Notes: generated from the sequence alone by a model not told the origin. A stretch of 64,000 nucleotides of DNA from Spirochaetota bacterium (GCA_023443865.1 JAEZST010000018.1:77214-141213), one strand, 5' to 3'. Positions 9,218-64,000 are shown, counted from the stretch's first letter. Translations and numbers: made by a program.

Positions 9218-10899
9218 TTAATGCCCTTGAGCGGCATAATGCCTTCGGGCGTGAAATCGCCGGCCAAGGCCCCGAATGCCGCGGTGAACGAGAGGGGCGC
9301 GTAACTGTATACCGCCAGGGCCGTATTGACCCAGGGCGCGTTTTCGAGGAGGACCGGCGACAGGGCCGATACCACGATAACCCGGCACTTTTCGCCCCGC
9401 AGCGCGTTCAGTACGGGTAATTGTTCCCGGGACGAGAGGCAGAAAATGACCGTGTCGAAGGCCCTTGCCCGTTTTGGGAGGTTCCAGTTTACCCCGGACG
9501 TCTCTGCGCCCGGAAAACGCGCCGTACCCGCCTCTAAAAAGGAGGGAAAGGCAGAGGCGAGGAGCACCCGGCCCGGCTCTCCGAGGGGGAGCCCCGCGTT
9601 CCGCACGAGCGTGACCGAGCGAACCGCCTGGGACAGGAAAAACTCCTTCCCTTCGGGATCGGGAACTCGCTCCTCAAGTTTCGCGAGGTCAGGATACACG
9701 GGGACCGCGTCGTCGTCCTTGAAATACGAGAGCTTCGCGAGAATGACCCGCCGGGCCGCGTCCTTTACCCGGTCCCTGAACGCCGGAACGCGCGACATGC
9801 GGTCAAGGTTCTTGGCCCAGAACGCGTCGCCGAAGGACGGGGTGGTGGAGGATTCGATAATATCGTTGCCCGCCTCCAGCGCGAGCTGAACGGCCCGGGA
9901 AACGCTTCCCGCGTATTCCGTGGCCCCGTTCATCATGATATCGTCGGTTACGATAAGCCCCGTGAAGCCCATTTCGTCCCGCAAGACGTCGTTTAAAAGC
10001 AGTTTCGAGAAGGTAGCCGGTTCGTCGTTTCCGGTGATTTGCGGAAAATTGAGGTGTCCGCTCATAACGGCCTCGACCCCCGCGTCGATCAGGTAGCGGA
10101 AGGGCACGAGCTCGCGGCTTCTGAACGTCTTTCCGTCTATGGGTATGACGGGGAGCTTGCCGTGACTGTCCATGCCGGTGTCGCCGTGGCCGGGAAAGTG
10201 CTTGGCGGTGGTGAGGACCCCCGCCGCCCGGCTGCCCGCGACGAATGCGGCGCCGAGGATGCCGGCCGCGTCGGGGTCCTCGCCGAAGGAACGCGGGCCT
10301 ATTACGGTGGATTCATGGTCCGTATAGAGGTCTACCGCGGGGGCGAAATTCAAATTGATGCCGAGGGCTCCCAGCTCCCGCGAGATATAATAGCCCGTAT
10401 TCCAGGCGTCGGCGGGAAGCCCCGACGCGCCGATGGCGAGATTTCCCGGGGTTTCGGTGGTTCGGCCCTTGATATGCCTGATCCATCCGCCTTCCTGGTC
10501 GGTGGCCACGAAGAGGGGAATGCCGAACCTGCCCTCGGCGGCCTTTTTTTGGAGCGCCGTTACCGATTCGGCGACCTTTCGCGTGTCGTCGGTGTTCCAG
10601 CCGAAGATCTTGATGCTGCCCAATCCCCGCTCGGCCACCCAATCGGTGACCAGGGGGCTGGGATCGGTTCCGGCCCAGCCGAACATAAGGGTTTGCGCCA
10701 GCAGTTCCGAGTCGGTCATGGCGGCGACCAACGCGTTTGCCAGGTCTTCGTCGGGAAGGGGGTCGTCAAAGCGGGGAAGGCCCTCCGGCGGCGCCTTGGA
10801 GGAAAGCATGAGGGCCGCCGCCGCCGTTACGGCGAGAAGGCCGGTAATAGTCGCGAAAACCGCTGCGGCGCGGCTTTTCCTCACGAGCCTACCCCGCAC
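9214..10899 (-). CDS. Glycoside hydrolase family 3 protein (NagZ-like beta-N-acetylhexosaminidase / beta-glucosidase-related), secreted.
   Basis: 561 aa with an N-terminal hydrophobic signal. GH3 N-domain signatures: LGINLNFAPAVDL, KHFPGHGDTGMDSHG. The start overlaps the trxB stop by 19 nt. Confidence 0.8.
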   Translation of the reverse strand: MRGRLVRKSRAAAVFATITGLLAVTAAAALMLSSKAPPEGLPRFDDPLPDEDLANALVAAMTDSELLAQTLMFGWAGTDPSPLVTDWVAERGLGSIKIFGWNTDDTRKVAESVTALQKKAAEGRFGIPLFVATDQEGGWIRHIKGRTTETPGNLAIGASGLPADAWNTGYYISRELGALGINLNFAPAVDLYTDHESTVIGPRSFGEDPDAAGILGAAFVAGSRAAGVLTTAKHFPGHGDTGMDSHGKLPVIPIDGKTFRSRELVPFRYLIDAGVEAVMSGHLNFPQITGNDEPATFSKLLLNDVLRDEMGFTGLIVTDDIMMNGATEYAGSVSRAVQLALEAGNDIIESSTTPSFGDAFWAKNLDRMSRVPAFRDRVKDAARRVILAKLSYFKDDDAVPVYPDLAKLEERVPDPEGKEFFLSQAVRSVTLVRNAGLPLGEPGRVLLASAFPSFLEAGTARFPGAETSGVNWNLPKRARAFDTVIFCLSSREQLPVLNALRGEKCRVIVVSALSPVLLENAPWVNTALAVYSYAPLSFTAAFGALAGDFTPEGIMPLKGIN

Positions 10900-11843
10900 A
10901 TGGACGCGTCGATGCAGTTCGAGGCGGAGTGGGCCGCCACCGCCCCGTCGGACGTGGCGGTAACGATTTGGCGGAAGGGCTTGGATCGAATGTCTCCCGC
11001 CGCGAAGAGGCCATGGATGGAGGTCTGCATCCCCTCGTCGGTCAGTACGTATCCCTCGTCGTCCTTTTTGGCGAGGGCGACCAGTTCCGTGCGGGGATTC
11101 ATGCCGATGAAGATGAATACGGCGTCGCAGGCGAGCTCTTCCTTCGCGCCCGTCTCGACGTTCTCGAGAAGCGCCGAGGTCACCTTTCCCGATTCCTGAT
11201 CGGTGCCGAGAATTTCCCTCACCACGGTATTGAAGCGCACGTTTATGTGGGGGTTGCGCAGGGTTCGTTCGGCGATGGATTTTTGCGCCCTGAACGCGTT
11301 TCGGCGGTGGACCATGGTGACACGGTCGGTCAGGTGGGCCAGGAAACCCGCCTCGTCGCAGGCCGCGTCGCCGCCGCCCACCACCAGGATATGCTTGTTC
11401 CGGAAAAAGGGACCGTCGCAGGTCGCGCAGTAGGATACGCCGCGGCCGTAGTAGGCTTCCTCGCCGGGGACCCCGAGGTGCCGATGCTCGGCGCCCGTGG
11501 CCAAAACCACGGTCCGGGTCGAATAGGTGATGGGGTTTTCCTCGCTCGATTCGATCGGTATCACGAAAACGCCGTCTTTCTTGCCCAGTCCCGTAACCTT
11601 TCCATATACGAATTCGGCCCCGAAGCGGACGGCCTGTTCCTTCATGTTCGCCGCGAAATCGTAGCCGTTGACGGGATCGAGAATGCCGGGATAGTTTTCA
11701 AGCCGGTCGATGAGCACGGCCTGGCCGCCCTCTGATTTTTCCTCGATCACGAGGGTTTTCAGGTTGGCCCGTCCCGCGTATTGCGCTGCCGAAAGGCCCG
11801 CCGCGCCTGCCCCGATGATTATCATATCGTATATGGTTTCCAT
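10881..11843 (-). CDS. trxB: Thioredoxin-disulfide reductase.
   Basis: 320 aa. FAD-binding GAGAAG, redox-active CATCDG, NADPH-binding GGGDAA. Confidence 0.9.
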   Translation of the reverse strand: METIYDMIIIGAGAAGLSAAQYAGRANLKTLVIEEKSEGGQAVLIDRLENYPGILDPVNGYDFAANMKEQAVRFGAEFVYGKVTGLGKKDGVFVIPIESSEENPITYSTRTVVLATGAEHRHLGVPGEEAYYGRGVSYCATCDGPFFRNKHILVVGGGDAACDEAGFLAHLTDRVTMVHRRNAFRAQKSIAERTLRNPHINVRFNTVVREILGTDQESGKVTSALLENVETGAKEELACDAVFIFIGMNPRTELVALAKKDDEGYVLTDEGMQTSIHGLFAAGDIRSKPFRQIVTATSDGAVAAHSASNCIDASMCGVGS

Positions 11844-11871: not shown

Positions 11872-12324
11872 TCAGTCAAGCCAGTGTACCTTGTCGGGCG
11901 CCTTCTCCGCCATGCGGATCGTCTTGTAGCGGCCCGAATGCTCGACCCGCACGTCCTTGGGGAAATAGGTACAGTGCAGGAACCAAACCGCGTCGAGGAT
12001 AGAGGCGAAAGAATCGGAGGGACAGTAGCGAAACCACAGTTCCTGGTTTTCTATCTGCGAACGCCGGAGGGGATCCGTGGTCGCGTCGGGATCTACCGCG
12101 GCCCGCAGCTGGCTTCTCAGGCCGCCGTACCAGGCGTGGGTTACCGTTAAAAGGTTCAGTTTTTTTTGTTCATCCATCCGGTACAGCTCGAAGAGGCCGG
12201 AAACGGAGGGTACGGAAGCGTTTATCTCGTATTTATCCGCCTTTTTCAGCGGCGACCAAACCAGGGTATAGGATATCGTGTCGCCGGTGACGCTGGCGGT
12301 AAGCGAGGGTTTCATTTCGAACAT
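11872..12324 (-). CDS. Hypothetical protein (150 aa), first gene of the trxB-containing minus-strand operon.
   Basis: Complete ORF 28 nt upstream of trxB on the same strand. No family recognised. Confidence 0.4.
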   Translation of the reverse strand: MFEMKPSLTASVTGDTISYTLVWSPLKKADKYEINASVPSVSGLFELYRMDEQKKLNLLTVTHAWYGGLRSQLRAAVDPDATTDPLRRSQIENQELWFRYCPSDSFASILDAVWFLHCTYFPKDVRVEHSGRYKTIRMAEKAPDKVHWLD

Positions 12325-12415: not shown

Positions 12416-12516
12416 GCAAATTGCTTCGCGATTTTGGCGCCTGTCCTTGGAACCTGCGGTTCCGGCGGGCGGCGAGAGGAAGTGATTGTAACAAATTGCT
12501 TCGCGATTTTGGCGCC
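12416..12516 (+). repeat. Two copies of a 25-bp direct repeat (CAAATTGCTTCGCGATTTTGGCGCC) at 12417..12441 and 12492..12516. The second copy covers the 5' flank plus the first 6 nt of tRNA-Cys.
   Basis: Exact 25/25 match read directly from the sequence. Possibly a duplicated tRNA promoter/5' region. Confidence 0.6.
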
Positions 12517-12582
12517 GTACCCAAGCGGTAAGGGAGAGGTCTGCAAAACCTTTATGCATCAGTTCGATTCTGATCGGCGCCT
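12511..12582 (+). tRNA. tRNA-Cys (anticodon GCA).
   Basis: Manual fold of GGCGCCGTACCCAAGCGGTAAGGGAGAGGTCTGCAAAACCTTTATGCATCAGTTCGATTCTGATCGGCGCCT. Perfect 7-bp acceptor (GGCGCCG/CGGCGCC), U8-A9, D-loop AGCGGTA with GG. Anticodon stem GAGGT/ACCTT with loop CUGCAAA (U33, GCA, A37). 5-nt variable loop. T-arm ATCAG-TTCGATT-CTGAT. Discriminator U73, the tRNA-Cys identity base. CCA is not encoded. Confidence 0.75.
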
Positions 12583-12629
12583 CAAAAAGAAAAGCCCACC
12601 ATATGGTGGGCTTTTCTTTTTGAGGCGCC
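12576..12629. terminator. Perfect 54-bp palindrome, GGCGCCTCAAAAAGAAAAGCCCACCAT|ATGGTGGGCTTTTCTTTTTGAGGCGCC. The core GCCCACC-ATAT-GGTGGGC hairpin is flanked by an A-tract and a T-tract, so it is a bidirectional intrinsic terminator directly after tRNA-Cys. Its outer arm is the tRNA 3' acceptor strand.
   Basis: Inverted repeat read directly. The T-rich run TTTTCTTTTT follows the stem on the plus strand, and the complementary run follows it on the minus strand. Confidence 0.6.
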
Positions 12630-12786
12630 GGTTCCGCGAGGAAATGTATCGAATGCCCCGGCATACGCCGTGGCTGTGGATCGGCGCCTGAATTGGGCGC
12701 CGGTTTATCAAGGAAAAGGATAAACTGCTCCGGTACGTACCGGAGCGATGGCACGGCGCCATGATTGGGCGCCGGTTCCGCGAGGC
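12623..12786. repeat. Cluster of short GGCGCC-based direct repeats. GGCGCCGGTTCCGCGAGG occurs twice (12623..12640 and 12769..12786). CGGCGCC(T/A)TGA(A)TTGGGCGCCGG occurs twice (~12682 and ~12755). GATCGGCGCCT, identical to the last 11 nt of tRNA-Cys, is repeated at ~12679. There is also the palindrome CCGGTACGTACCGG (~12731).
   Basis: Read directly from the sequence. The repeats are copies of the tRNA 3' end and flank, which suggests integration/excision scars (att-like) next to the tRNA. Confidence 0.45.
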
Positions 12787-12823
12787 TTACGGAAACGATG
12801 TTTCGATAGTGCAATTGCGTATA

Positions 12824-12852
12824 TTGCGGAAATGCAATTATGCGGTTATCAT
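12824..12852 (+). promoter_or_regulatory. Candidate sigma-70-like promoter for the EBP gene (TTGCGG-17nt-TATCAT). The predicted start site is within 1-2 nt of the ATG, so the mRNA may be leaderless. It overlaps the ATTGCGGAAATGC motif.
   Basis: Hexamers read directly: -35 at 12824..12829, -10 at 12847..12852, ATG at 12860. No RBS is possible in the interval. Confidence 0.3.
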
Positions 12853-12859
12853 TTTTAAA

Positions 12860-14206
12860 ATGAGCGACGACAGCCTTACCGCGAACATCCTCGAGAGCAT
12901 TTCGGACGGGGTATTCACGGTCGACGAAAACTGGAAGATTACCTCGTTTAACCGGGCCGCGGAACGGATTACCGGGGTGGGCCGGAAGCAGGCGATCGGT
13001 CAGAACTGCTTCGAGGTGTTCAAGTCGAATATGTGCGAGTCGTCGTGCCCCTTACGGCGAACGATGAAGACGGGAAAGCCGCTCGTCGACCGTTCGGGCT
13101 TTTGCGTGACGAAAAAGGGCAGTCGGATCCCGATCAGCGTATCGACCGCCTTGCTCGTTGACGCCCGGGGAAGGGTGCTCGGCGGCGCGGAGACGTTTCG
13201 CGATTTGACCGAACTCGAGGAACTGAAGAAGGAACTGGCCTCCCGCGGGCCAAACCCCGTTTTCCGGAGCAAAAGCCCTTCCATGGAGAAACTTCTCGCG
13301 ATGCTTCCCGCGGTTTCGGACTCTACGAGCTCTATCCTGATACGGGGCGAGACGGGCACGGGCAAGGAAGTGCTGGCCCGCGCCATCCATTCCCTGAGCC
13401 CCCGAAAGGACGGGCCGTTCGTCGCGGTAAACTGCGGCGCGATCCCCGAAAACCTCCTTGAATCGGAGCTCTTTGGCTATAAGAAGGGCGCCTTCACCGG
13501 CGCCGACCGCGACAAGCCGGGGCGCTTCGCGCTCGCCGAGGGCGGAACCCTTTTTCTCGACGAGATAGGCGATATTGCCCCTGCCTTGCAGGTAAAGCTT
13601 TTGCGCGTCCTTCAGGAACGGGAGTACGAGCCGCTCGGCGGCACGAAGCCGGTACGCGCCGACGTGCGGCTCGTCTCGGCGACGAACGCGGACCTTGCGG
13701 CCCTGATCGCCGAGGGAACGTTTCGGCGCGATCTTTTTTATCGCGTCAACGTCATCAATCTCGTACTGCCTCCATTAAAAGACCGGAAAGAAGACATACC
13801 CGATCTCGCCTCGGGCTTTCTCTCGTCGTTCGCCGTGAAAATGAACAGGAAAATCGACGGGATCGCGCCCGAGGTGTTCTCTCGTTTTTACGCGTATGAC
13901 TGGCCCGGCAATATCCGCGAGCTCGAAAACGTCGTAGAGCGCATGGTCGTGCTCGCGGACGCTCCCATTATCGGCCGGGACCTCTTGCCGAGCGAACTGC
14001 TGGCTCCCGGCGTTTCCCTAAAGGAAGCGCTAGCGGGAGCCGGCCCGGCGAAGGTCGCGCGCGTGCGCGACGAGGCCGAGCGGGAATGCATCGCCGCGGC
14101 CCTCGAGGCGCACGGATGGAGGCGCGCCGAGACGGCCGCCGCGCTCGGCATCGACAAGGCGACCCTGTGGCGGAAGGTGAAAAAGCTCGGCATTACCGAG
14201 CCGTAG
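12860..14206 (+). CDS. Sigma-54-dependent transcriptional activator (bacterial enhancer-binding protein). N-terminal PAS sensor, central AAA+ sigma-54 interaction domain, C-terminal Fis-type HTH. No receiver domain.
   Basis: PAS segment ([30 protein letters not shown]). Walker A GETGTGKE, the GAFTGA sigma-54 contact motif, ESELFGY, and a C-terminal HTH ([20 protein letters not shown]). The track ORF begins at 12761, but the start is placed at ATG 12860 ([12 protein letters not shown]). Confidence 0.85.
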
Positions 14207-14234
14207 CCGCGCGGGGGCTATCGTCCGCCGTCGG

Positions 14235-14519
14235 TCACGTTTCCTTCGGCGCGGTCAGTTCGGCGAGCCGCCCGTTCGCTTTCTCGAGTTCGCGCGAGAG
14301 AATCGCGACGCGGTTCTCGAGGAAGGCCTTTTCTTCCCCGTCCATCGATTCGGTCGGTAGGGCCCCGCGCATGCGTCGCCGGCCTCCGAAGCGTCCGCCT
14401 CCGAAGCCCCGGCCTTCGCCGCTCGCGTATCCCGGAACGTCATATCCCGCGCAGAAACCCGCTCCGCGGCCGGTCATCGGACCGCATCCCCGCGGTCCCA
14501 TTCCATTTCCTCTAGGCAT
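14235..14519 (-). CDS. Small Gly/Arg-rich protein resembling the DUF5320 family. The N-terminus is MPRGNGMGPRGCGPMTGRGAGFCAGY and the C-terminus is a coiled-coil. This family is typically encoded next to NifX-like/Mrp clusters in anaerobes.
   Basis: 94-aa ORF with a strong RBS (AGGAGG 7 nt upstream of the ATG). The N-terminal MPRG(D/N)G(T/M)GP(M/R)G.GP.TGRGAG(Y/F)CAG pattern matches what I recall of DUF5320. It sits under its own sigma-54 promoter. Confidence 0.6.
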   Translation of the reverse strand: MPRGNGMGPRGCGPMTGRGAGFCAGYDVPGYASGEGRGFGGGRFGGRRRMRGALPTESMDGEEKAFLENRVAILSRELEKANGRLAELTAPKET

Positions 14520-14555
14520 AGTGTACCTCCTCTAGCTGAGAGTTTCCCATCGTGA

Positions 14556-14572
14556 TGCAAAAAGCGTGCCAA
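14556..14572 (-). promoter_or_regulatory. Sigma-54 (RpoN) promoter for the DUF5320-like gene. On the minus strand it reads TTGGCACGCTTTTTGCA, a perfect TGGCACG-N4-TTGC.
   Basis: The -24 GG and -12 GC elements have exact consensus spacing. The predicted start site is ~14545, giving a 26-nt leader with AGGAGG and the ATG at 14519. Confidence 0.7.
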
Positions 14573-14715
14573 GCGCCTTTTTATGCTCCCGACGGGAGAG
14601 CGAAGGCGAAAACGCGGCGCGAATGATTGCGGATATGCGCTATCCATTGCGTTCGCGTTGCGATTCCGCACTGTAATGCGGGGCCTGCCGCCCCCATTTT
14701 CGCGATTATTCGAGA

Positions 14716-14731
14716 TGGCACGGAAATTGCT
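14716..14731 (+). promoter_or_regulatory. Sigma-54 (RpoN) promoter for the NifX-like/MinD-Fer4/Mrp operon: TGGCACGGAAATTGCT, a perfect TGGCACG-N4-TTGC.
   Basis: Exact consensus read on the plus strand. The -12 GC is at 14729..14730, so the predicted start site at ~14741..14743 coincides with the first ATG (14743). The first gene would be translated from a leaderless or near-leaderless mRNA. Confidence 0.7.
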
Positions 14732-14742
14732 CAATAAAAACC

Positions 14743-15129
14743 ATGAAACTTGCCCTATCGGTCTGGAATGGCAGAATCGCTCCCGTCTTTGACGCATCGG
14801 AACGGTGCCTGATCGTCGACGCCGGTTCCTCCGGCTCGATCGGCGATCTTGTCGTTTTTTCGTGCCGGACCGCCGACGAAAAGGCCCGTTTTCTCGCTGA
14901 CAAGGGCGTGTCGACGGTCGTGTGCGGCGCGGTGTCCCATGAATACGAGGAAGCCTTCATTGCGCGCGGTATCGAGATTGTCTCGTTTATAGCCGGGCCG
15001 GTGGAGCGAGTAATCGAGGCCTGGAACGCCGGGACCCTGATAGGGGCACCGTTTTCCATGCCGGGATGCGGCTGTCCGCGCCGCCGCCGATGCAGGCGGA
15101 GAGGGCGCGGAGGATCGCTCAATCTATAG
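14743..15129 (+). CDS. NifX/NafY/NifB-C-terminal-like dinitrogenase FeMo-cofactor-family protein (MTH1175-like fold), copy 1. It has an odd Arg/Cys-rich C-terminal tail.
   Basis: 128 aa. The N-terminus MKLALSVWNGRIAPVFDASERCLIVD is the characteristic beginning of this family (MKIA.p...g.....FG.a..f.i.D). Confidence 0.75.
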   Translation: MKLALSVWNGRIAPVFDASERCLIVDAGSSGSIGDLVVFSCRTADEKARFLADKGVSTVVCGAVSHEYEEAFIARGIEIVSFIAGPVERVIEAWNAGTLIGAPFSMPGCGCPRRRRCRRRGRGGSLNL

Positions 15130-15148
15130 GAAACAAGGGGAGACACTC

Positions 15149-15511
15149 ATGAAAATCGCAATCAGTTCATCGGGACCGACGCTCGACGATCGGCTTGACC
15201 TTCGGTTCGGCCGCGCCGCCCTGTTTATCGTCTACGATCTTGACGGCGACGCGTTCGCCGTCGCTGACAATACGCAAAATCTCGAGGCCTCGCAGGGCGC
15301 GGGAATCCAGGCGGCGCAGCATGTCGTCAACGCGGGAGTCGGGGCGCTCGTAACCGGCCACACGGGGCCGAAAGCCTTCAAGGTACTCGAGGCCGCGAAG
15401 GTTCCCGTATTCCTGGCCGAGGGCGGGACCGTGCGGGAAGCGATCGCCGCCTTCCGCGCGGGCACCCTCGAGGCCATCGTTGCGGCCGACGTTGAGGGCC
15501 ATTGGGTATGA
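15149..15511 (+). CDS. NifX/NafY-like dinitrogenase FeMo-cofactor-family protein, copy 2.
   Basis: 120 aa. MKIAISSSGPTLDDRLDLRFGRAALFIVYDLDGDAF... with the conserved ...GVGALVTGHTGPKAF...VPVF segment. RBS AAGGGGAG upstream. The stop overlaps the next start (ATGA). Confidence 0.8.
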   Translation: MKIAISSSGPTLDDRLDLRFGRAALFIVYDLDGDAFAVADNTQNLEASQGAGIQAAQHVVNAGVGALVTGHTGPKAFKVLEAAKVPVFLAEGGTVREAIAAFRAGTLEAIVAADVEGHWV

Positions 15512-16404
15512 GGATAGCCGTCGCGTCCGGCAAGGGAGGAACGGGCAAAACGACCGTATCGGTTTCCCTCGCGCTCTCGTTTCCGGGGAAGGCGCAGCTT
15601 CTCGACTGCGACGTGGAAGAGCCGAACGCGGGGATCTTTCTCTCGCGGCGGGATATCCGCGAACGGGAGGTTACCGTCCCCGTTCCGGTCATAGACGAGG
15701 CGAAGTGTACCGCGTGCGGCGCTTGCGCGTCGTTTTGCGAGTTTAACGCGATCGCGCGCATCGGGGACACCGTCATGATATTCCCCGAACTGTGCCACTC
15801 CTGCGGCGGCTGCGCGCTCGTATGCCCGGTTGGCGCGATTCGGGAGGAACCGTCCGCGATCGGTACGTTAACGGAAAGCGAGATTCTTCGCGACGGCCTT
15901 TATCCCCTCGATTTTTTTCAGGGCCTGCTCTCGATCGGAAAGGCGATGTCACCGCCGCTGATCCGGGCGGTCAAGTCTCGCGCGGCAAGATCGGACCGGG
16001 GGGGCGAAGGGCGCGGAGACCCCGACGTACTGACGATCGTCGACTCTCCCCCGGGAACGTCATGCCCGATGGGCACGGCCGTCGCGGGCGCGGACTTCGT
16101 CGTTCTCGTGACCGAGCCCACGCCCTTCGGCCTCCATGACCTTGACCTCGCGGTGAAGACCGTCCGAACGAGGGGGATCCCCTTCGGCGTCGTCATAAAT
16201 CGGTGCGATTCGGGCGACGGCCGCGTGGAGGCGTACTGCGCAGGGGAGCGTATCCGGATTCTCATGCAAATACCGGAAGACCGCCGCGTCGCCGAGGGTT
16301 ACTCGGAGGGAAAACCGCTTATCGAGTCGGCTCCGGAATACCGGAAGAAGTTCGCCGTTTTGGCGGATGTCATAGCCGGCGAGATACGGGGAGGGGACCG
16401 ATGA
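15508..16404 (+). CDS. MinD/ParA/CooC-type P-loop ATPase with an inserted di-cluster 4Fe-4S ferredoxin domain.
   Basis: Deviant Walker A SGKGGTGKTT. Two CxxCxxCxxxCP motifs (CTACGACASFCE, CHSCGGCALVCP). The track start 15502 is a TTG, so ATG 15508 (MRIAVASGKGG) is preferred. Confidence 0.8.
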   Translation: MRIAVASGKGGTGKTTVSVSLALSFPGKAQLLDCDVEEPNAGIFLSRRDIREREVTVPVPVIDEAKCTACGACASFCEFNAIARIGDTVMIFPELCHSCGGCALVCPVGAIREEPSAIGTLTESEILRDGLYPLDFFQGLLSIGKAMSPPLIRAVKSRAARSDRGGEGRGDPDVLTIVDSPPGTSCPMGTAVAGADFVVLVTEPTPFGLHDLDLAVKTVRTRGIPFGVVINRCDSGDGRVEAYCAGERIRILMQIPEDRRVAEGYSEGKPLIESAPEYRKKFAVLADVIAGEIRGGDR

Positions 16405-17318
16405 AGGAAATCGCGATAATAAGCGGAAAGGGCGGCACGGGAAAGACCAGTCTCACGGCCGCCTTCGCGACGCTGGCGGCCCGGCGCGGAAACGCGGTCC
16501 TGGCCGACTGCGACGTGGACGCCGCGGACCTGCGCCTCGTTCTTTCGCCCGAGATTCTCGAACGCCGCGAGTTTGTTTCCGGACGCGTCGCCCGCGTGGA
16601 TCCCGAACGGTGTATATCCTCGGGAGAGGATTCAAGCTGCTCGAAGTGCGTGGAGCTCTGCCGGTTCGACGCGATACGGCGCTCCGGCGATTCGGGCATA
16701 GAGATCGACGGGGGCTCGTGCGAGGGCTGCGGCGTATGCGTTCGGTTTTGCCCCGCAAAGGCGATCGAGTTCGTACCCCGGCGATGCGGCGAATGGTACG
16801 TTTCCGAGACGCGGTTCGGCCCGCTCGCCCACGCGGCGCTCGACGCGCGCGCGGAGAACTCGGGCAAGCTCGTAACGGCCGTCCGCAAGGAAGCGAAACG
16901 GCTCGCGGGCGAAACGAAGGCCGACTGGATCATCGTGGACGGGTCTCCCGGCACTGGCTGCCCGGTCATCGCCTCGATCACCGGCGCCGACGAGGCGCTG
17001 ATCGTGACCGAGCCCACGATGTCCGGACACCATGACCTTGAGCGCGTCGCGGGCCTCGCGCGGCATTTCTCGATCCCGTTTTCGGTCGTCGTGAACAAGG
17101 CCGACATCAACCGGGCCATGGCAGACGAAACGGAGGCCTGGTGCGCGCGGAACGGGGTGCCGTTTCTCGGGAAGGTCCCGTACGACCGCGCCGTGACGAG
17201 GGCCCAGATCGAGGGAAAGAGCGTGATCGAGTATTGCGAAAGCGGCGGAAGCTGCGGGCAAAACATACCGTCGATAGTCGGCGGAATATGGGAGAAGATA
17301 TGTCAATCGAAACGGTAA
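16401..17318 (+). CDS. Second MinD/ParA-type P-loop ATPase with a 4Fe-4S ferredoxin insertion, paralogous to the previous gene.
   Basis: MKEIAIISGKGGTGKTS Walker A. Cys clusters CSKCVELC and CEGCGVCVRFCP. The start is the ATG at 16401 inside the track ORF 16203..17318, with ATGA overlap to the upstream stop. Confidence 0.8.
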   Translation: MKEIAIISGKGGTGKTSLTAAFATLAARRGNAVLADCDVDAADLRLVLSPEILERREFVSGRVARVDPERCISSGEDSSCSKCVELCRFDAIRRSGDSGIEIDGGSCEGCGVCVRFCPAKAIEFVPRRCGEWYVSETRFGPLAHAALDARAENSGKLVTAVRKEAKRLAGETKADWIIVDGSPGTGCPVIASITGADEALIVTEPTMSGHHDLERVAGLARHFSIPFSVVVNKADINRAMADETEAWCARNGVPFLGKVPYDRAVTRAQIEGKSVIEYCESGGSCGQNIPSIVGGIWEKICQSKR

Positions 17319-18079
17319 AGATGGACGGCGTGGCGAAGAAGTATATCGTCATGTCGGGAAAGGGCGGCGTCGGGAAAAGCACGGTCGCGGTGAACCTCGC
17401 CGCGAGTCTCGCCCTGCGGGGCAAGCGGGTCGGGCTCCTCGACGTGGACATTCACGGACCGAGCGTGCCGACCATGCTCGGGCTCGAGGGAAACCGGCTC
17501 GGTGCGATCGGCGGGAAGATGCTGCCCGTCGGGATCCCGGAACTCGGCAACTTGAAGGTGATGTCGATCGGCTTCATGCTCCAATCGCCCGACGCCCCGG
17601 TAATCTGGCGCGGCCCGATGAAGAACGGCGTGATCAAGCAATTCCTGGAAGATGTCGAATGGGGCGAGCTCGATTGCCTCGTCGTCGATTGCCCTCCCGG
17701 GACGGGAGACGAGCCGATGTCGGTCATTCAGCTCCTCGGTAACGCTGACGGGGCGATCGTCGTCACGACGCCTCAAAAAGTCGCGGCGATCGACGTGAGC
17801 AAGTCCGTCAATTTCTGCAAGCAGCTTGGCCTCCCGGTCGCCGGCGTCGTCGAGAACATGTCCGGCTTCGTGTGTCCCGAATGCGGGAAGATTACCTATG
17901 TCTTCAAGCGGGGGGGCGGCAGGCGGCTCGCTGAGGAATACGGCGTGCCGTTTCTCGGCTCCCTGCCGCTCGATCCCGCCATCGGGGAGGCCGGCGATTC
18001 CGGCGTTCCCTACGTTTTGAAGTTCAAGGAGTCGCCGGCGAGCGACGTATATAACGAGATTACAAGGAGCCTTTTATGA
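17300..18079 (+). CDS. Mrp/NBP35/ApbC-family Fe-S cluster carrier ATPase.
   Basis: VMSGKGGVGKSTVAVNLA Walker A, conserved CPECG motif, about 259 aa. The start is placed at ATG 17300 (MSIETVK) with the RBS GGGAGAAG. The upstream part of the track ORF is an Arg-rich artefact. The stop overlaps the next gene. Confidence 0.85.
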   Translation: MSIETVKMDGVAKKYIVMSGKGGVGKSTVAVNLAASLALRGKRVGLLDVDIHGPSVPTMLGLEGNRLGAIGGKMLPVGIPELGNLKVMSIGFMLQSPDAPVIWRGPMKNGVIKQFLEDVEWGELDCLVVDCPPGTGDEPMSVIQLLGNADGAIVVTTPQKVAAIDVSKSVNFCKQLGLPVAGVVENMSGFVCPECGKITYVFKRGGGRRLAEEYGVPFLGSLPLDPAIGEAGDSGVPYVLKFKESPASDVYNEITRSLL

Positions 18080-18417
18080 TGAAGATCGCGGTACCCGTAG
18101 CGGAAGGGCGGCTGACCCAGCATTTCGGCCATTGCGCGGGGTTCGATTCCTTCGACGTCGCCGAGGACGGAAAGACCGTCGTCAATAAGGATTACATCGC
18201 CGCCCCGCCCCACGAGCCGGGCCTCTTGCCGAAATTCCTCGGCGAAAAGGGCGTGACCCATATCGTCGCGGGGGGAATGGGGAGCCGGGCGCGCGACCTC
18301 TTTACCGAGCGGGGAATCGCCGTGTGCGTCGGCGCGCCCGCAGAGAAAACCGAGAAAATCGTCGCGGACTTTCTCGCCGGGACCTTGATTACCGGCGTTA
18401 ACGGATGCGACCATTGA
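18076..18417 (+). CDS. NifX/NafY-like dinitrogenase FeMo-cofactor-family protein, copy 3.
   Basis: 113 aa. MMKIAVPVAEGRLTQHFGHCAGFDSFDV... with ...THIVAGGMGSRA..., typical of the family. Confidence 0.8.
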   Translation: MMKIAVPVAEGRLTQHFGHCAGFDSFDVAEDGKTVVNKDYIAAPPHEPGLLPKFLGEKGVTHIVAGGMGSRARDLFTERGIAVCVGAPAEKTEKIVADFLAGTLITGVNGCDH

Positions 18418-27009: not shown

Positions 27010-27483
27010 CTACGTATCCTGGCCGGACCGGCTATCTTCTTCCAAGCCGAGCTTTCGCGCGATGATGGCCGCGGCTTCGCCCACGATTCGCGCGCAGGGC
27101 CTCTTTTCGTAATATTCCTTCGTCCGCTCCGACGGGGCGGCGGAATAGCCGCAGTCGTATTTCTCCAGGAGCTCGCGGCACACGCCGGTACCGAAGAGCG
27201 AAACGAATTCGCCGTGCGCTTCCTGGATCAGGGCGTAAAAGGCGGTTTTTGACTCGGTGTCGTCCGGGGAATAGGAGCCTCGGGCCAGTCCCGAGACGAA
27301 GGCCATGCCGCTAATGGCGCCGCAGGTTTCTCTCAGCCCGCCTATGCCCCCGCCGAAACCGGCCGTCATTTTCGCGATCTCCGCCTCGGTAAGGCCGAAA
27401 TCGTCAGCGAAGGCCGCCGCAGTGGACTGGGCGCAGTTGTATCCCGACAGGAAAAGCGCTTGGGCGCGGTTCAGGTGCTTCAT
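27010..27483 (-). CDS. C_GCAxxG_C_C family protein (putative redox-active protein).
   Basis: 157 aa with the family-defining N-terminal FLSGYNCAQSTAAAF and downstream Cys motifs (CGAISG, GTGVCRE). Confidence 0.7.
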   Translation of the reverse strand: MKHLNRAQALFLSGYNCAQSTAAAFADDFGLTEAEIAKMTAGFGGGIGGLRETCGAISGMAFVSGLARGSYSPDDTESKTAFYALIQEAHGEFVSLFGTGVCRELLEKYDCGYSAAPSERTKEYYEKRPCARIVGEAAAIIARKLGLEEDSRSGQDT

Positions 27484-61577: not shown

Positions 61578-61980
61578 GGAATCAATCAAGGCAGAATATG
61601 TTTCCCATTTTGGTTCGGATTTCTTTCCTAAGGCGTTTATCGCGCTTCCTTGCGGCGCGTCATATCTTCAGTTGATTATTGACGATACCGGCACCCCTAT
61701 TGATTATATAACCTTAGACGTAAATCCCGCTTTTTTGCAATTGCTGGAAACCTCAAAAGATAAGGTAATTGCCAGACGCGCGAGCGAGCAACTTTCAACT
61801 ACGGAACTTCGTTACTGGCTAGACATATTCTCCCCCGTGGCGTTAGGGGAAGGAATCACCAGAACGACAATGTATGCCCATTCAAAAATTAGGAAATTCA
61901 ACGTGACCGCAATAAGTCCCCGAAAGGGTTTTTTCTGTTTGTTCTTTTCGGAGGTCACTCCAACGCGACGAAACGCCTAA
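61576..61980 (+). CDS. Hypothetical protein with a PAS-like fold, in the low-GC segment.
   Basis: 134 aa. The segment IDYITLDVNPAFLQLLETSKDKVIARRASEQL resembles a PAS core. Weak assignment. Confidence 0.35.
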   Translation: MESIKAEYVSHFGSDFFPKAFIALPCGASYLQLIIDDTGTPIDYITLDVNPAFLQLLETSKDKVIARRASEQLSTTELRYWLDIFSPVALGEGITRTTMYAHSKIRKFNVTAISPRKGFFCLFFSEVTPTRRNA

Positions 61981-62285
61981 TCTATACCCCATGGGTTTGA
62001 ATAGTCGTTGTACGGCTTCATAAAGAACTCAGTCGATTCGACCTTTAGTACTATAGCGAGTCTTTCAATCGTCTTAGCCGACGGGAATTTTTCTCCCCTT
62101 TCTAGAAGGGCTATATAGTTAGCCGCGACTTCGGCCTTATCGGCTAGCGTAACTTGGGTCATTTGTTCACAGACGCGAATCCGCCGTAAATTTTTCCCAA
62201 ATACGATTTTGATATTTTCAATAACCATGGCTATAAGAATATGTCCTATTCGCTGCGGCGACAATCGCTTTTTGTTATTATGCAT
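61977..62285 (-). CDS. XRE-family HTH regulator (102 aa), in the low-GC segment.
   Basis: HTH (MTQVTLADKAEVAANYIALLERGEKFPSAKTIERLAIVL). The upstream region (62311..62325) carries the ATAACTATAACCAAT motif shared with the metE operator. Confidence 0.6.
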   Translation of the reverse strand: MHNNKKRLSPQRIGHILIAMVIENIKIVFGKNLRRIRVCEQMTQVTLADKAEVAANYIALLERGEKFPSAKTIERLAIVLKVESTEFFMKPYNDYSNPWGID

Positions 62286-62659
62286 ACGTTTCCTCGTAAG
62301 AATTCATTCTATAACTATAACCAATCGAATTTGACATATAACTAATAGTGATTAATGCTGACAGTATCAATAAAGTTAAAAATATTCTGAGGAGTTCGTA
62401 TGAACGACAACAACGCGGTCCCGTGGTTTCATTCTGTTTCGGTATCTTTCGATCAAGACCCAAAAATTCTAAAAGAGTAATTCGCTAAAGAATTAAATCC
62501 TCACCGGAATCAGTATCGCAACGCGCTCTCAGCGGTAACAGTCACCAACGAAGAAATTCGAATGATTGTTTTTATCCCTATGGAAAACGCTTGAAATAGG
62601 GGCGATCGCATCGTGCATTCGCCTGATCAAGCAAAGATTATTTTTTACGAGGTATACGC

Positions 62660-64000
62660 ATGAAATTACGCACAACGCTATTAGTCGGTTTTTCCGTCGT
62701 AGCCGTCATGTCGTTAGTGGTAGGGATCATAGGCATGAAGAATATGTTCACTATCAATCAAACCAGCACGGTGATGTATGATCGGGAGTTACAGGCAATT
62801 TCGTTGATTAAAGAGGCAAATATCTATTTGCTCTACGCAGATCGCGCAGAAAAGTAGTTTTTACTCGCGGACACGGCGGAATACCGGCAAAGCCAATATG
62901 AAAGTTGGAAGAAGTACGTTGCCGAAGCCGAACGTCTCCTCAAACAGGCAGAACCGAAGTTCTATACCGATGAGGGGAAAGAAATTTATAAAAGCATGTT
63001 TGTATACTTTAATGAGTGGGAACCTATCGCTGAAAAGTTTTTTCTCTCGGAAGCGATAATGCACTCATAATACGCGATGATTCACATGACCTGTCGTTTG
63101 GGGAAGCCCGGGACCGATTTGACCTCTTTGATAAGAGCGTGACCGATGCCTCGCTTAAGATGGAGAGCAACGCGAAAGATCTCGATGAAACGGGCAATGC
63201 GTTATATAAAACAAGCGTCGTACTTCAAATAATCGTAATCTCCTTATCGCTCGTTCTCGGGCTTTTAATCGGAATCGTAATTTCAAATTCCGTATTAAAA
63301 ACCGTTGGCGGCGAACCGTCTGACATCGCGGCAGTCGCGAACGAAGTCGCCTCCGGGAATCTACTGGTCAATACGGCCGACGCGGAGAATAAAACGGGTA
63401 TCCTTAACGCCCTTCTTCGTATGGTTATACGATTACGGGAAGTAATCCAGTCCATGTCTGCGGCGGCCGATCAAGTATCCTCGGGAAGCCAGCAACTGAG
63501 CGGTACCTCGCAAAGCATTGCGCCAGGCGCCAGCGAACAGGCGTCTTCCGTCGTCGAGATTTCCGCCTCAATGGAACAAATGACGTCAAACATAAAACAG
63601 AACGCGGAGAACGCCCAGATAACCGAAAAAATCGCGCAAAAATCCGCGCTTGACGCCGAAACCGGCGGGGAAGCGGTCTCCAAAACGGTCGAGGCAATGA
63701 AATTAATCGCGGTAAAAACTTCCATTATCGAAGAAATCGCCCGCTCAACGAATATGCTTGCGCTCAATGCCTCGATAGAAGCCGCCCGCGCCGGGGAATA
63801 CGGAAAAGGATTCGCCGTCGTCGCCTCTGAGGTAGGGAAGCTCGCGGAGCGTAGCCAAAAGGAGGCTGGAGAGATCAGTAAGCTCTCGAGCGAAAGCGTG
63901 ATGATCGCCGAAAATGCCGGAAATACCATCAAACAAATAATACCGGATATTAAGCGTACCGCTGAGCTTGTTCAGGACATCAGCGCCGCAAGCGTTGAAC
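62660..64000 (+). pseudogene. Methyl-accepting chemotaxis protein gene (4HB-MCP type) disrupted by an in-frame TAG at 62855..62857 and by a frameshift in a T6 run (~63041..63046). The 3' part (from ~63034 in another frame) continues beyond the window end.
   Basis: Fragment 1 (62660..62857) is MKLRTTLLVGFSVVAVMSLVVGIIGM...YADRAEK*. The same frame continues as FLLADTAEYRQSQYESWKKYV...[13 protein letters not shown] +1 frame from 63034 encodes ...[22 protein letters not shown]... (the second transmembrane segment), then HAMP and the MCP signalling domain ([34 protein letters not shown]) with no stop before 64000. Confidence 0.6.

Follow-up and report, generated by a model that had tools for sequence, protein, structure and literature searches.

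A very probable orp (orange protein complex) gene cluster in a spirochaete of the Treponemataceae type

We describe here a region of the genome of a Spirochaetota bacterium (GCA_023443865.1, JAEZST010000018.1:77214-141213). The window is the whole stretch of 64 kb which was analysed, and all positions are counted from its first letter. Between positions 12,860 and 18,417 there are eight genes which very probably constitute a complete orp (ORange Protein complex) cluster of a Treponemataceae-type spirochaete, the counterpart of DVU2103-2109 in Desulfovibrio vulgaris Hildenborough (DvH). All seven orp gene families of DvH are represented, those of Orp5 and Orp7 less securely, and no other gene is interleaved with them. 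At the level of sequence the analysis demonstrates the homology of the genes and the conservation of ligand motifs, promoters and gene neighbourhood. The orp cluster, which encodes redox-controlled proteins of anaerobes that bind Fe-S and metal clusters, is a known system, not a new one; its final cellular role is still unsettled in the literature.

The region had been pointed out before as a sigma-54-controlled module for the handling of metalloclusters. This original prediction placed all eight open reading frames (ORFs) correctly, and Pfam finds the domains which it expected: the three small proteins fall in PF02579, the two ATPases have CbiA/ParA and Fer4 domains and the Mrp protein belongs to PF10609. 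Its two perfect sigma-54 promoters are also found in the divergent intergenic region. The regulator start which it proposed, at 12860, is backed by homologues of 448-449 aa which align from residue 1; automatic gene calls start instead at 12761 (481 aa). Tight ATGA overlaps had been claimed at four junctions: three of them are present (15508, 16401 and 18076), while the second ATPase gene and the Mrp gene overlap by 19 nt. The orp7-like and orange protein genes are separated by a gap of 19 nt, which holds a GGGGAG ribosome-binding site. The likeness to DVU2103-2109 had been noted correctly, as it is apparent from gene-by-gene BLASTP matches to the orp loci of Desulfovibrionaceae. It was a mistake to consider that DVU2103-2109 has no assigned function: it is known as the ORP complex, encoded by the orp operons, with a characterised regulator, a requirement for IHF and an Fe-S carrier. 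The word uncharacterised is appropriate for the physiological output, which is unsettled, but not for the system itself.

Three reference loci were obtained with DVU2109 as bait, its sequence having been rebuilt from the supplementary alignment of PMC6345978. They are a contig identical to DvH which contains DVU2107-2109 (L089), a locus of Desulfovibrio (Oleidesulfovibrio) alaskensis (L092) and a locus of Nitratidesulfovibrio liaohensis with the divergent arrangement of DvH (L093). The first one ends at DVU2107, and for DVU2103-2106 the loci of N. liaohensis and D. alaskensis were used in its place.

We will start with the orange protein (Orp8) homologue. It is 50% identical to DVU2108 over its full length (119 aa) and 51% identical to the orange protein of D. 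alaskensis (BLASTP); its best match in the PDB is 2WFB, the orange protein of D. gigas (E 1.5e-20). It has no cysteine, and neither Cys nor His is conserved across 95 homologues; the absence of Cys fits a non-covalent binding of the cluster by this protein. NifX, NafY and the C-terminal domain of NifB share the same fold (IPR003731/PF02579) and bind complex metal-sulfur clusters, often without the classical ligation by Cys. The three NifX-fold proteins of the window differ from them: they are closer in sequence to ORP, to MrpORP's Di-Nase domain and to proteins of the MTH1175 type than to any Nif protein.

These observations bear on the reading of the original prediction, in which the genes form a maturation pathway for an external client (a hydrogenase, a carbon monoxide dehydrogenase or a radical-SAM enzyme), or else a displaced nitrogenase accessory region. 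The maturation of other enzymes is indeed a known role of Mrp/NBP35 and CooC-type ATPases, and proteins with the NifX fold serve as carriers of cofactor precursors. A separate Mrp paralogue of DvH is found in a hydrogenase-maturation operon (PMC6345978). However, the NifX-like proteins match ORP and MrpORP, not NifX or NafY. Pfam scans (E<=1e-8) on 40 other large ORFs across the window gave no match to nifHDK, nifEN or nifB, as had been predicted, nor any hydrogenase, carbon monoxide dehydrogenase or radical-SAM gene. No such gene adjoins the cluster in the annotated relatives either; the sole radical-SAM gene seen is that of L088, on the other strand and some 2.4 kb downstream. Furthermore, the only physiological recipients tested for the MrpORP cluster are Orp3 and Orp4 (PMC6345978). 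A maturation pathway of this kind is very unlikely, and the clients suggested for it find no support in the window. The nitrogenase accessory region was rejected: there is no nif family in the 40 ORFs and none in the called genes of related loci. The earlier deduction that the NifX-fold proteins bind clusters other than FeMo-co we judge to be correct.

The two ATPases follow the orange protein gene. ATPase-1 (15508-16404) is 39% identical to orp4 of N. liaohensis and 47% to a 316-aa protein of D. alaskensis; for ATPase-2 (16401-17318) the values are 49% with orp3 of N. liaohensis and 52% with a 308-aa protein of D. alaskensis (BLASTP). The pairing is reciprocal and one-to-one: ATPase-1 with orp4, ATPase-2 with orp3. 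The Walker A sequence GKGGTGKT is present in these MinD-type ATPases. ATPase-1 has eight ferredoxin cysteines which, together with Cys186 (PPGTSCP), are invariant in 75 of 75 sequences. ATPase-2 also has eight invariant ferredoxin cysteines, and its Cys187 (SPGTGCP) is invariant in all 71 homologues, as are His144 and His211; Cys129 is nearly so (70 of 71). In each paralogue the extra cysteine is found in a PPGTxCP motif, seven residues past the Walker B aspartate. These additional Cys and His residues could mark a metal or cluster site between subunits. The AlphaFold2 model of ATPase-1 has a predicted local distance difference test score (pLDDT) of 91.7.

The spacing from the Walker B aspartate to the cysteine of PPGTxCP equals what we take to be the Asp125-Cys132 spacing of NifH. 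It might then be imagined that the Orp3/Orp4-like pair is an ATP-driven Fe-S heterodimer similar to NifH/BchL, not to MinD, in which the invariant cysteine could bridge an interface cluster. With the three NifX-fold carriers and Mrp it would form a nitrogenase-independent assembly line of a heterometal-sulfide cofactor for the orange protein. We consider this scheme rather improbable.

The last member of the complex, MrpORP (Orp9), is found in two pieces. The Mrp half is 60% identical to residues 74-296 of DVU2109 (E 4e-93) and the Di-Nase half is 54% identical to residues 376-487 (E 6e-39). An NCBI naming model exists for MrpORP, the NCBIfam equivalog entry NF041136. The Mrp gene has 368.8 bits over its positions 2-247 and the Di-Nase gene 119.5 bits over positions 264-365. 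Each gene alone is below the cut-off of 450 bits; their sum is 488 bits and the model is spanned end to end. A single-polypeptide MrpORP was not found in the window: there are two genes with a 4-nt ATGA overlap. The same split with the same overlap is present in Teretinema (Treponema) zuelzerae and in two metagenomic relatives, so that it is real and not a sequencing error. According to the literature the fusion of Mrp and Di-Nase arose and was lost repeatedly. The Mrp half contains SGKGGVGKS and CPEC, and the CxxC is invariant in 27 of 27 sequences. It also matches Cfd1 (E 1e-65) and structures of the ApbC type; the ApbC model gives 230 bits, compared with 368.8 for NF041136. The Mrp/NBP35/ApbC/Cfd1 proteins share with it the deviant Walker A and the CxxC which bridges a [4Fe-4S] cluster; it differs from them by belonging to the MrpORP subgroup and by having a Di-Nase partner in the next gene. 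In the Di-Nase half we find QHFGHC, PPHEPG and, at the C-terminus, CDH, which are the three motifs highlighted for MrpORP (PMC6345978). MrpORP of DvH is a characterised Fe-S carrier, which holds a bridging [4Fe-4S] cluster by its CxxC and transfers clusters to the Orp3-Orp4-Orp8 complex (PMC6345978).

The regulator was compared by BLASTP with those of two orp clusters: its identity is 43% with the one of D. alaskensis (E 7e-131) and 46% with the one of N. liaohensis (E 3e-135). Its PAS domain contains C50, E52, C59 and C63; an AAA+ domain, in which GAFTGA is found, and an HTH_8 domain are also present. In DvH OrpR is the sigma-54 activator required for orp transcription, and its PAS domain senses the redox state through an Fe-S cluster (PMC8359166). 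Residues C52, C61 and C65 are needed for redox sensing, with a conserved D/E54 nearby, and are thought to hold a [4Fe-4S] cluster, which appears to be [4Fe-4S]2+; the protein is active at low potential and becomes inactive after a rise of about 140 mV, though it is still bound to DNA (PMC8359166). The C-x-E-x6-C-x3-C pattern of the window has a spacing identical to that of DvH OrpR. A pattern C-[ED]-C-C is kept in every one of the 27 distinct regulators with a PAS domain 44% or more identical to that of the window. They come from Desulfobacterota, Holophaga foetida, a Nitrospirota metagenome-assembled genome and Treponemataceae relatives. It had been stated that OrpR seems restricted to delta-proteobacteria (PMC8359166). 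OrpR-like regulators with the full Cys triad adjoin orp genes in H. foetida DSM 6591 (L063), in the Nitrospirota genome (L047) and in Treponemataceae. Judged by these homologues, OrpR reaches at least three phyla beyond the published limit. Redox gating of the orp system would be broader than reported, because regulators with the Fe-S-binding cysteines adjoin orp genes in these organisms.

The similarities of the two remaining proteins are lower. The match of the orp7-like protein to PF02579 has 33.9 bits, just over the cut-off of 26.3. It is 28% identical to DVU2107 over 130 residues (E 8e-9), 28-31% across DVU2107 and orp7, and 32% identical to an 88-aa protein of D. alaskensis (E 1e-10). 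Its C-terminal tail is rich in Cys and Arg, MPGCGCPRRRRCRRRGRGG. The 88-aa protein is probably Dde_3197, a gene number obtained by counting back from Dde_3202; Dde_3197 is the [2Fe-2S] protein of Maiti et al. 2016. In the D. alaskensis locus (L092:5913-6305) the likeness to the orp7-like protein begins about 126 nt upstream of the called start of the 88-aa protein. The protein studied by Maiti et al. may be a NifX-fold protein truncated at its N-terminus.

The N-terminus of the DUF5320 protein shares 61% identity with orp5 of N. liaohensis along 23 residues (E 6e-6), through the motif MPxxNGxGPxGxGP. The DUF5320 model gives orp5 of N. liaohensis 24.7 bits, a little less than its cut-off of 27. 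The counterparts of Orp5 and Orp7 in Desulfovibrio are slightly under the Pfam cut-offs for DUF5320 and PF02579. All the features of the cluster are collected in Table 1.

Table 1. Genes, promoters and candidate regulatory sites of the orp-type cluster, with positions in the window
Feature	Position	Strand	Basis or remark
Candidate OrpR operator, four ATTGCR/YGCAAT half-sites	12810..12838	.	densest cluster of the hexamer in 64 kb; overlaps the sigma-70-like orpR promoter
orpR homologue, PAS + Sigma54_activat (5.9e-70) + HTH_8	12860..14206	+	Pfam
orp5-like DUF5320 protein (1.5e-21), Gly/Arg/Cys-rich	14235..14519	-	Pfam
Sigma-54 promoter TGGCACGCTTTTTGCA of the orp5-like gene	14556..14571	-	perfect consensus; kept in L086, L087 and L088
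Candidate shared upstream activating sequence, ATTGCG repeats + two degenerate ATTGCR-N4-YGCAAT (14626, 14657)	14626..14672	.	inferred
Sigma-54 promoter TGGCACGGAAATTGCT of the six-gene operon	14716..14731	+	perfect consensus
orp7-like NifX-fold protein, PF02579 4.1e-8	14743..15129	+	Pfam
Orange protein (Orp8) homologue, PF02579 3.3e-21	15149..15511	+	Pfam
Orp4-like MinD/ParA-type ATPase, CbiA/ParA P-loop + two Fer4 motifs	15508..16404	+	Pfam
Orp3-like MinD/ParA-type ATPase, CbiA/ParA P-loop + two Fer4 motifs	16401..17318	+	Pfam
Mrp half of split MrpORP (Orp9), PF10609 Mrp/NUBPL 1.1e-100	17300..18079	+	Pfam
Di-Nase (NifX-fold) half of split MrpORP, PF02579 1.3e-17	18076..18417	+	Pfam

The consensus TGGCAC-N5-TTGCW has exactly two matches in the 64 kb, even when one mismatch is allowed, and both are in the divergent intergenic region of 223 bp. 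Their number alone is not significant: two or more matches were found in 15 of 100 shuffles. Sigma-54 promoters precede the same genes in four related loci. Both promoters are conserved in L086, L087 and L088, while T. zuelzerae has two of them on the plus strand, at the equivalent genes; in three relatives a sigma-54 promoter is found upstream of the DUF5320 gene. In the window the orp5-like gene would be transcribed alone, and its predicted leader, some 26 nt long, has GGAGG as ribosome-binding site.

The six-gene operon has a different beginning. Between the TTGCT of its promoter and the start codon (ATG) of the orp7-like gene there are exactly 11 nt, and a ribosome-binding site is absent. 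This gene offers no other start in frame, and the N-terminus of its product, MK(L/V)A(L/V)S, already forms the first beta-strand of the fold, which is also the case for the other two NifX-like proteins. A spacing of 10-11 nt is found in all four relatives (L086:4207-4236, L087:4208-4237, L088:4202-4231 and L085:9794-9822). With the -12 element at its usual position, a gap of this size means that transcription would start at the ATG or one nucleotide before it, and therefore a leaderless transcript is predicted. The mRNA of the six-gene operon would be a conserved leaderless sigma-54-dependent transcript in Treponemataceae. In DvH and N. liaohensis, in contrast, the promoter and the start codon of orp7 are some 35 nt apart, and a clear GGAGG is present in DvH, so that the leaderless feature appears to be lineage-specific. 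As a separate observation, a sequence similar to a -10 element (TATCAT, 12847-12852), part of a sigma-70-like promoter read by eye, is found 7 nt before the ATG of orpR, which has no ribosome-binding site: orpR itself appears to be leaderless.

A hexamer, ATTGCR, is repeated in the two regulatory regions. The only perfect ATTGCR-N4-YGCAAT palindrome of the window is at 12823-12838. The OrpR site of DvH overlaps the orpR promoter and gives autoregulation (PMC3897727); the box at 12810-12838, if it is an operator, would plausibly be a parallel case. The second group of sites (14626-14672) is midway between the sigma-54 promoters, with its centre some 100 bp away from either predicted transcription start. 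Three TTGCR sites are present in 144 bp, with 0.32 expected, so that the region ranks among the top 1% of sliding windows. The relatives have 6-7 such sites in the equivalent region, and a perfect ATTGCAGAGATGCAAT is present in T. zuelzerae. When two mismatches are allowed ATTGCR-N4-YGCAAT is not enriched in the whole window (8 found, 6 expected). Only the clustering of ATTGCR boxes in both regulatory regions is suggestive of the predicted operator and upstream activating sequence.

Several observations weigh against the identification of the region as an orp cluster equivalent to that of DvH. The regulatory DNA does not contain the DvH OrpR palindrome GGGCGYRTTTTGCGCCC, which the cluster of N. 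liaohensis has: with up to three mismatches the sole match of this palindrome in the window is elsewhere, at chance level. The IHF consensus WATCARNNNNTTR has no match in 14520-14745, which is weak evidence given that IHF sites are degenerate; IHF is required for orp expression in DvH (PMC3897727). The absence of both means that the activation geometry in the window is only analogous to that of DvH. Orp9 is split, its Mrp half does not have the Cys-rich N-terminal extension of DVU2109, and the first Cys of CxHFGHCE is a Thr in the Di-Nase protein. A membrane-targeting helix has been proposed at the C-terminus of Orp3 and Orp4 in DvH; it is not evident here, where the hydrophobic moment of the ATPase C-terminus is unremarkable. 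The correspondences of Orp5 and Orp7 appear to be the weakest links, with a weak and partly low-complexity similarity. Finally, the host is assigned to Treponemataceae by its nearest named homologues only.

Comparison with DvH shows, together with the seven gene families, of which Orp5 and Orp7 correspond more weakly, many shared features: an activator of sigma-54 encoded in the cluster, a PAS domain with three Cys and an acidic residue, two opposed sigma-54 promoters, a cysteine-free orange protein, paralogous ATPases with eight ferredoxin cysteines each, an Mrp protein with a deviant Walker A and CxxC, and a Di-Nase protein with HFGHC, PPHxPG and CDH motifs. The gene order is different: in DvH orp5-orp4-orp3 are divergent from orpR-orp7-orp8-orp9, whereas in the window orp5 is alone and orp7-orp8-orp4-orp3-orp9N-orp9C form one predicted operon. 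The loop of OrpR is GAFTGA in the window and GAFTDA in DvH, the candidate activator box is ATTGCR-N4-YGCAAT instead of GGGCGYRTTTTGCGCCC, and the host belongs to Spirochaetota, not to Desulfobacterota. What appears to be new with respect to DvH is then the Treponemataceae host, the single six-gene operon, the split Orp9, another candidate activator site and the predicted leaderless sigma-54 transcript.

The cluster of D. alaskensis G20 (Dde_3197-Dde_3202, numbers inferred by counting back from Dde_3202) has an order nearly identical to that of the window. It is found on one strand, downstream of the regulator: a small Cys-rich orp7-like protein, the orange protein, a small Gly/Arg-rich protein, two ATPases and MrpORP. 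It differs by having the Gly/Arg-rich gene within the operon, which is divergent in the window, and a fused MrpORP of 415 aa, which is split in the window. Its regulator gene precedes it on the same strand, and palindromes of the GGGCG...CGCCC type are found in the long intergenic region. Genes of oxygen defence also flank this cluster: desulfoferrodoxin, rubredoxin, a flavodiiron-type protein and cytochrome bd.

In DvH, Orp3, Orp4, Orp5, Orp8 and Orp9 form a physical complex, and the orange protein of Desulfovibrio holds an anionic Mo-Cu-S cluster with no covalent ligands. The orp genes of DvH are controlled by sigma-54, OrpR and IHF, and are shut off as the redox potential rises (PMC8359166, PMC3897727). 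Mostly from these experiments we infer how the cluster of the window might work. The OrpR homologue would hold a redox-sensitive [4Fe-4S] cluster on C50, C59, C63 and possibly E52 of its PAS domain. At low potential it would bind midway between the back-to-back sigma-54 promoters and open both of them, using ATP; with a rising potential the cluster would be oxidised and transcription would stop. One promoter would give the Orp5-like protein, the other the Orp7-like protein, the orange protein, the Orp4/Orp3-like pair, Mrp and Di-Nase as one operon. A dimer of Mrp would bridge a [4Fe-4S] cluster on CPEC and pass clusters to the ferredoxin domains of the two ATPases. The latter would assemble with the cysteine-free orange protein, a presumed non-covalent holder of an anionic metal-sulfide cluster, Mo-Cu-S in Desulfovibrio. 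Our best guess for the output is an ATP-driven device of strict anaerobes for the handling or storage of metal-sulfide clusters.

A different output of the same cluster, which leaves its identity untouched, has been proposed in the DvH literature. The ATPases, together with Mrp at the pole or at the membrane, would work as a MinD/ParA-type positioning system of anaerobes and help in septum placement or chromosome segregation, in a redox-dependent way through their Fe-S clusters. Loss of OrpR does give morphological defects in DvH, which is without a full Min system. MrpORP-GFP is polar, and Orp3 and Orp4 were predicted to have amphipathic C-termini similar to MinD (PMC6345978). Among solved structures, archaeal MinD proteins match the ATPases best in sequence, and the NCBIfam model minD_arch matches weakly: scores to MinD models are 56-69 bits, with cut-offs of 202-213 bits. 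Neither minC nor minE was seen among the 40 other ORFs scanned. We consider a septum role possible but not likely. Handling or storage of metal-sulfide clusters is at least as likely, because the ATPases of every orp cluster are coupled to several cluster-binding proteins with the NifX fold, Cys, Arg and Gly are abundant in the Orp7-like and DUF5320 proteins, the related protein IssA stores thioferrate, apparently helped by a cationic tail, and in relatives the cluster is adjoined by C_GCAxxG_C_C genes and, in one of them, by NifU, flavin-reductase-like and rubrerythrin genes.

A more specific form of storage can be considered, related to IssA: the NifX-fold and Gly/Arg-rich proteins would sequester anionic inorganic polymers or clusters of metal-sulfide under sulfide-rich reducing conditions, as storage or detoxification of Fe-S or thiometalates, and the ATPases would load or release them. 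IssA is an IPR003731 protein with a long, positively charged tail in which Gly and aromatic residues abound; it has been proposed to bind anionic thioferrate through this tail, and it can rebuild [4Fe-4S] ferredoxin. The end of the Orp7-like protein, GCGCPRRRRCRRRGRGG, and the Gly/Arg-rich DUF5320 protein are reminiscent of it, and the orange protein binds anionic Mo-Cu-S without covalent ligands and without any conserved Cys or His. In one relative NifU_N, flavin-reductase-like and rubrerythrin genes are found by the cluster, and in four C_GCAxxG_C_C genes. However, the tail here has only about 20 residues, is Cys/Arg-rich and is without the aromatic residues of IssA, a comparison made by description only. 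Besides, expression in DvH peaks in ordinary anaerobic growth, not in metal or sulfide excess (PMC8359166). An IssA-like function in this strict sense is doubtful.

To determine the distribution of the cluster we scanned species-representative genomes with the orange protein as anchor. At least 80 other loci were found, mostly in Desulfobacterota; the D. gigas and DvH loci are not among the matches listed. In 69 of the listed loci there is enough downstream sequence for a neighbourhood count. The comparison of gene neighbourhoods, already proposed with the original prediction, supports a conserved system: among the matches listed, ORP is followed directly by two ATPase genes in 63 of the 69 loci, and one more NifX-like gene is present at some place in 64 of the 69. 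For at least about 20 of the listed loci, genes of an OrpR-like regulator, of an Mrp protein and of an Orp7-like protein are also found within 10 kb.

The window itself matches metagenomic contigs. Of the named homologues of ATPase-1 the nearest, with 72% identity, is that of T. zuelzerae, a species of Spirochaetota in the family Treponemataceae; other Treponemataceae and Treponema sequences come next. The T. zuelzerae cluster is rearranged: ORP, the two ATPases and orpR come first, then orp7-like, Mrp and Di-Nase genes behind a second sigma-54 promoter. In the relatives the divergent side carries extra genes (L087:1148-4046, L086:182-4045, L088:3744-4082 and L085:9149-9607), which include a C_GCAxxG_C_C putative redox protein, a 173-aa protein of no family, NifU_N, flavin-reductase-like and rubrerythrin genes. 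A gene with a metallo-beta-lactamase fold comes after their last NifX-like gene. In the window the C_GCAxxG_C_C gene is at 27010-27483, 9 kb downstream of the cluster.

The 40 other large ORFs scanned in the window are housekeeping or unrelated genes, among them those for biosynthesis of shikimate, proline and methionine, thioredoxin reductase, tyrosyl-tRNA synthetase, chemotaxis and ABC transport. A gene for a pyridine nucleotide-disulfide oxidoreductase similar to thioredoxin reductase (10881-11843) is located 1 kb upstream of orpR, followed by an ORF of 150 aa with no family (11872-12324). Close upstream of orpR there is also a tRNA-Cys (GCA) gene, 12511-12583, near an operon with many Fe-S proteins of cysteine ligation; their proximity is probably a coincidence. 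At the other end of the window, positions 62001-64000 have 46% G+C, compared with about 62% elsewhere, and a small ORF (61977-62285) resembles by eye a helix-turn-helix regulator: this segment may be foreign DNA.

The main value of these results is corrective. What was supposed to be an unknown metallocluster machine is very probably the orp system, with a decade of literature, which can now be annotated in spirochaete genomes. The function of the ORP complex is a long-standing question, which the window alone neither settles nor eases; among the papers searched we found no functional work on ORP later than 2021. T. zuelzerae is a named isolate and would offer a second experimental host for orp which is not a sulfate reducer, free of the Mo, Cu and sulfide chemistry of those organisms.

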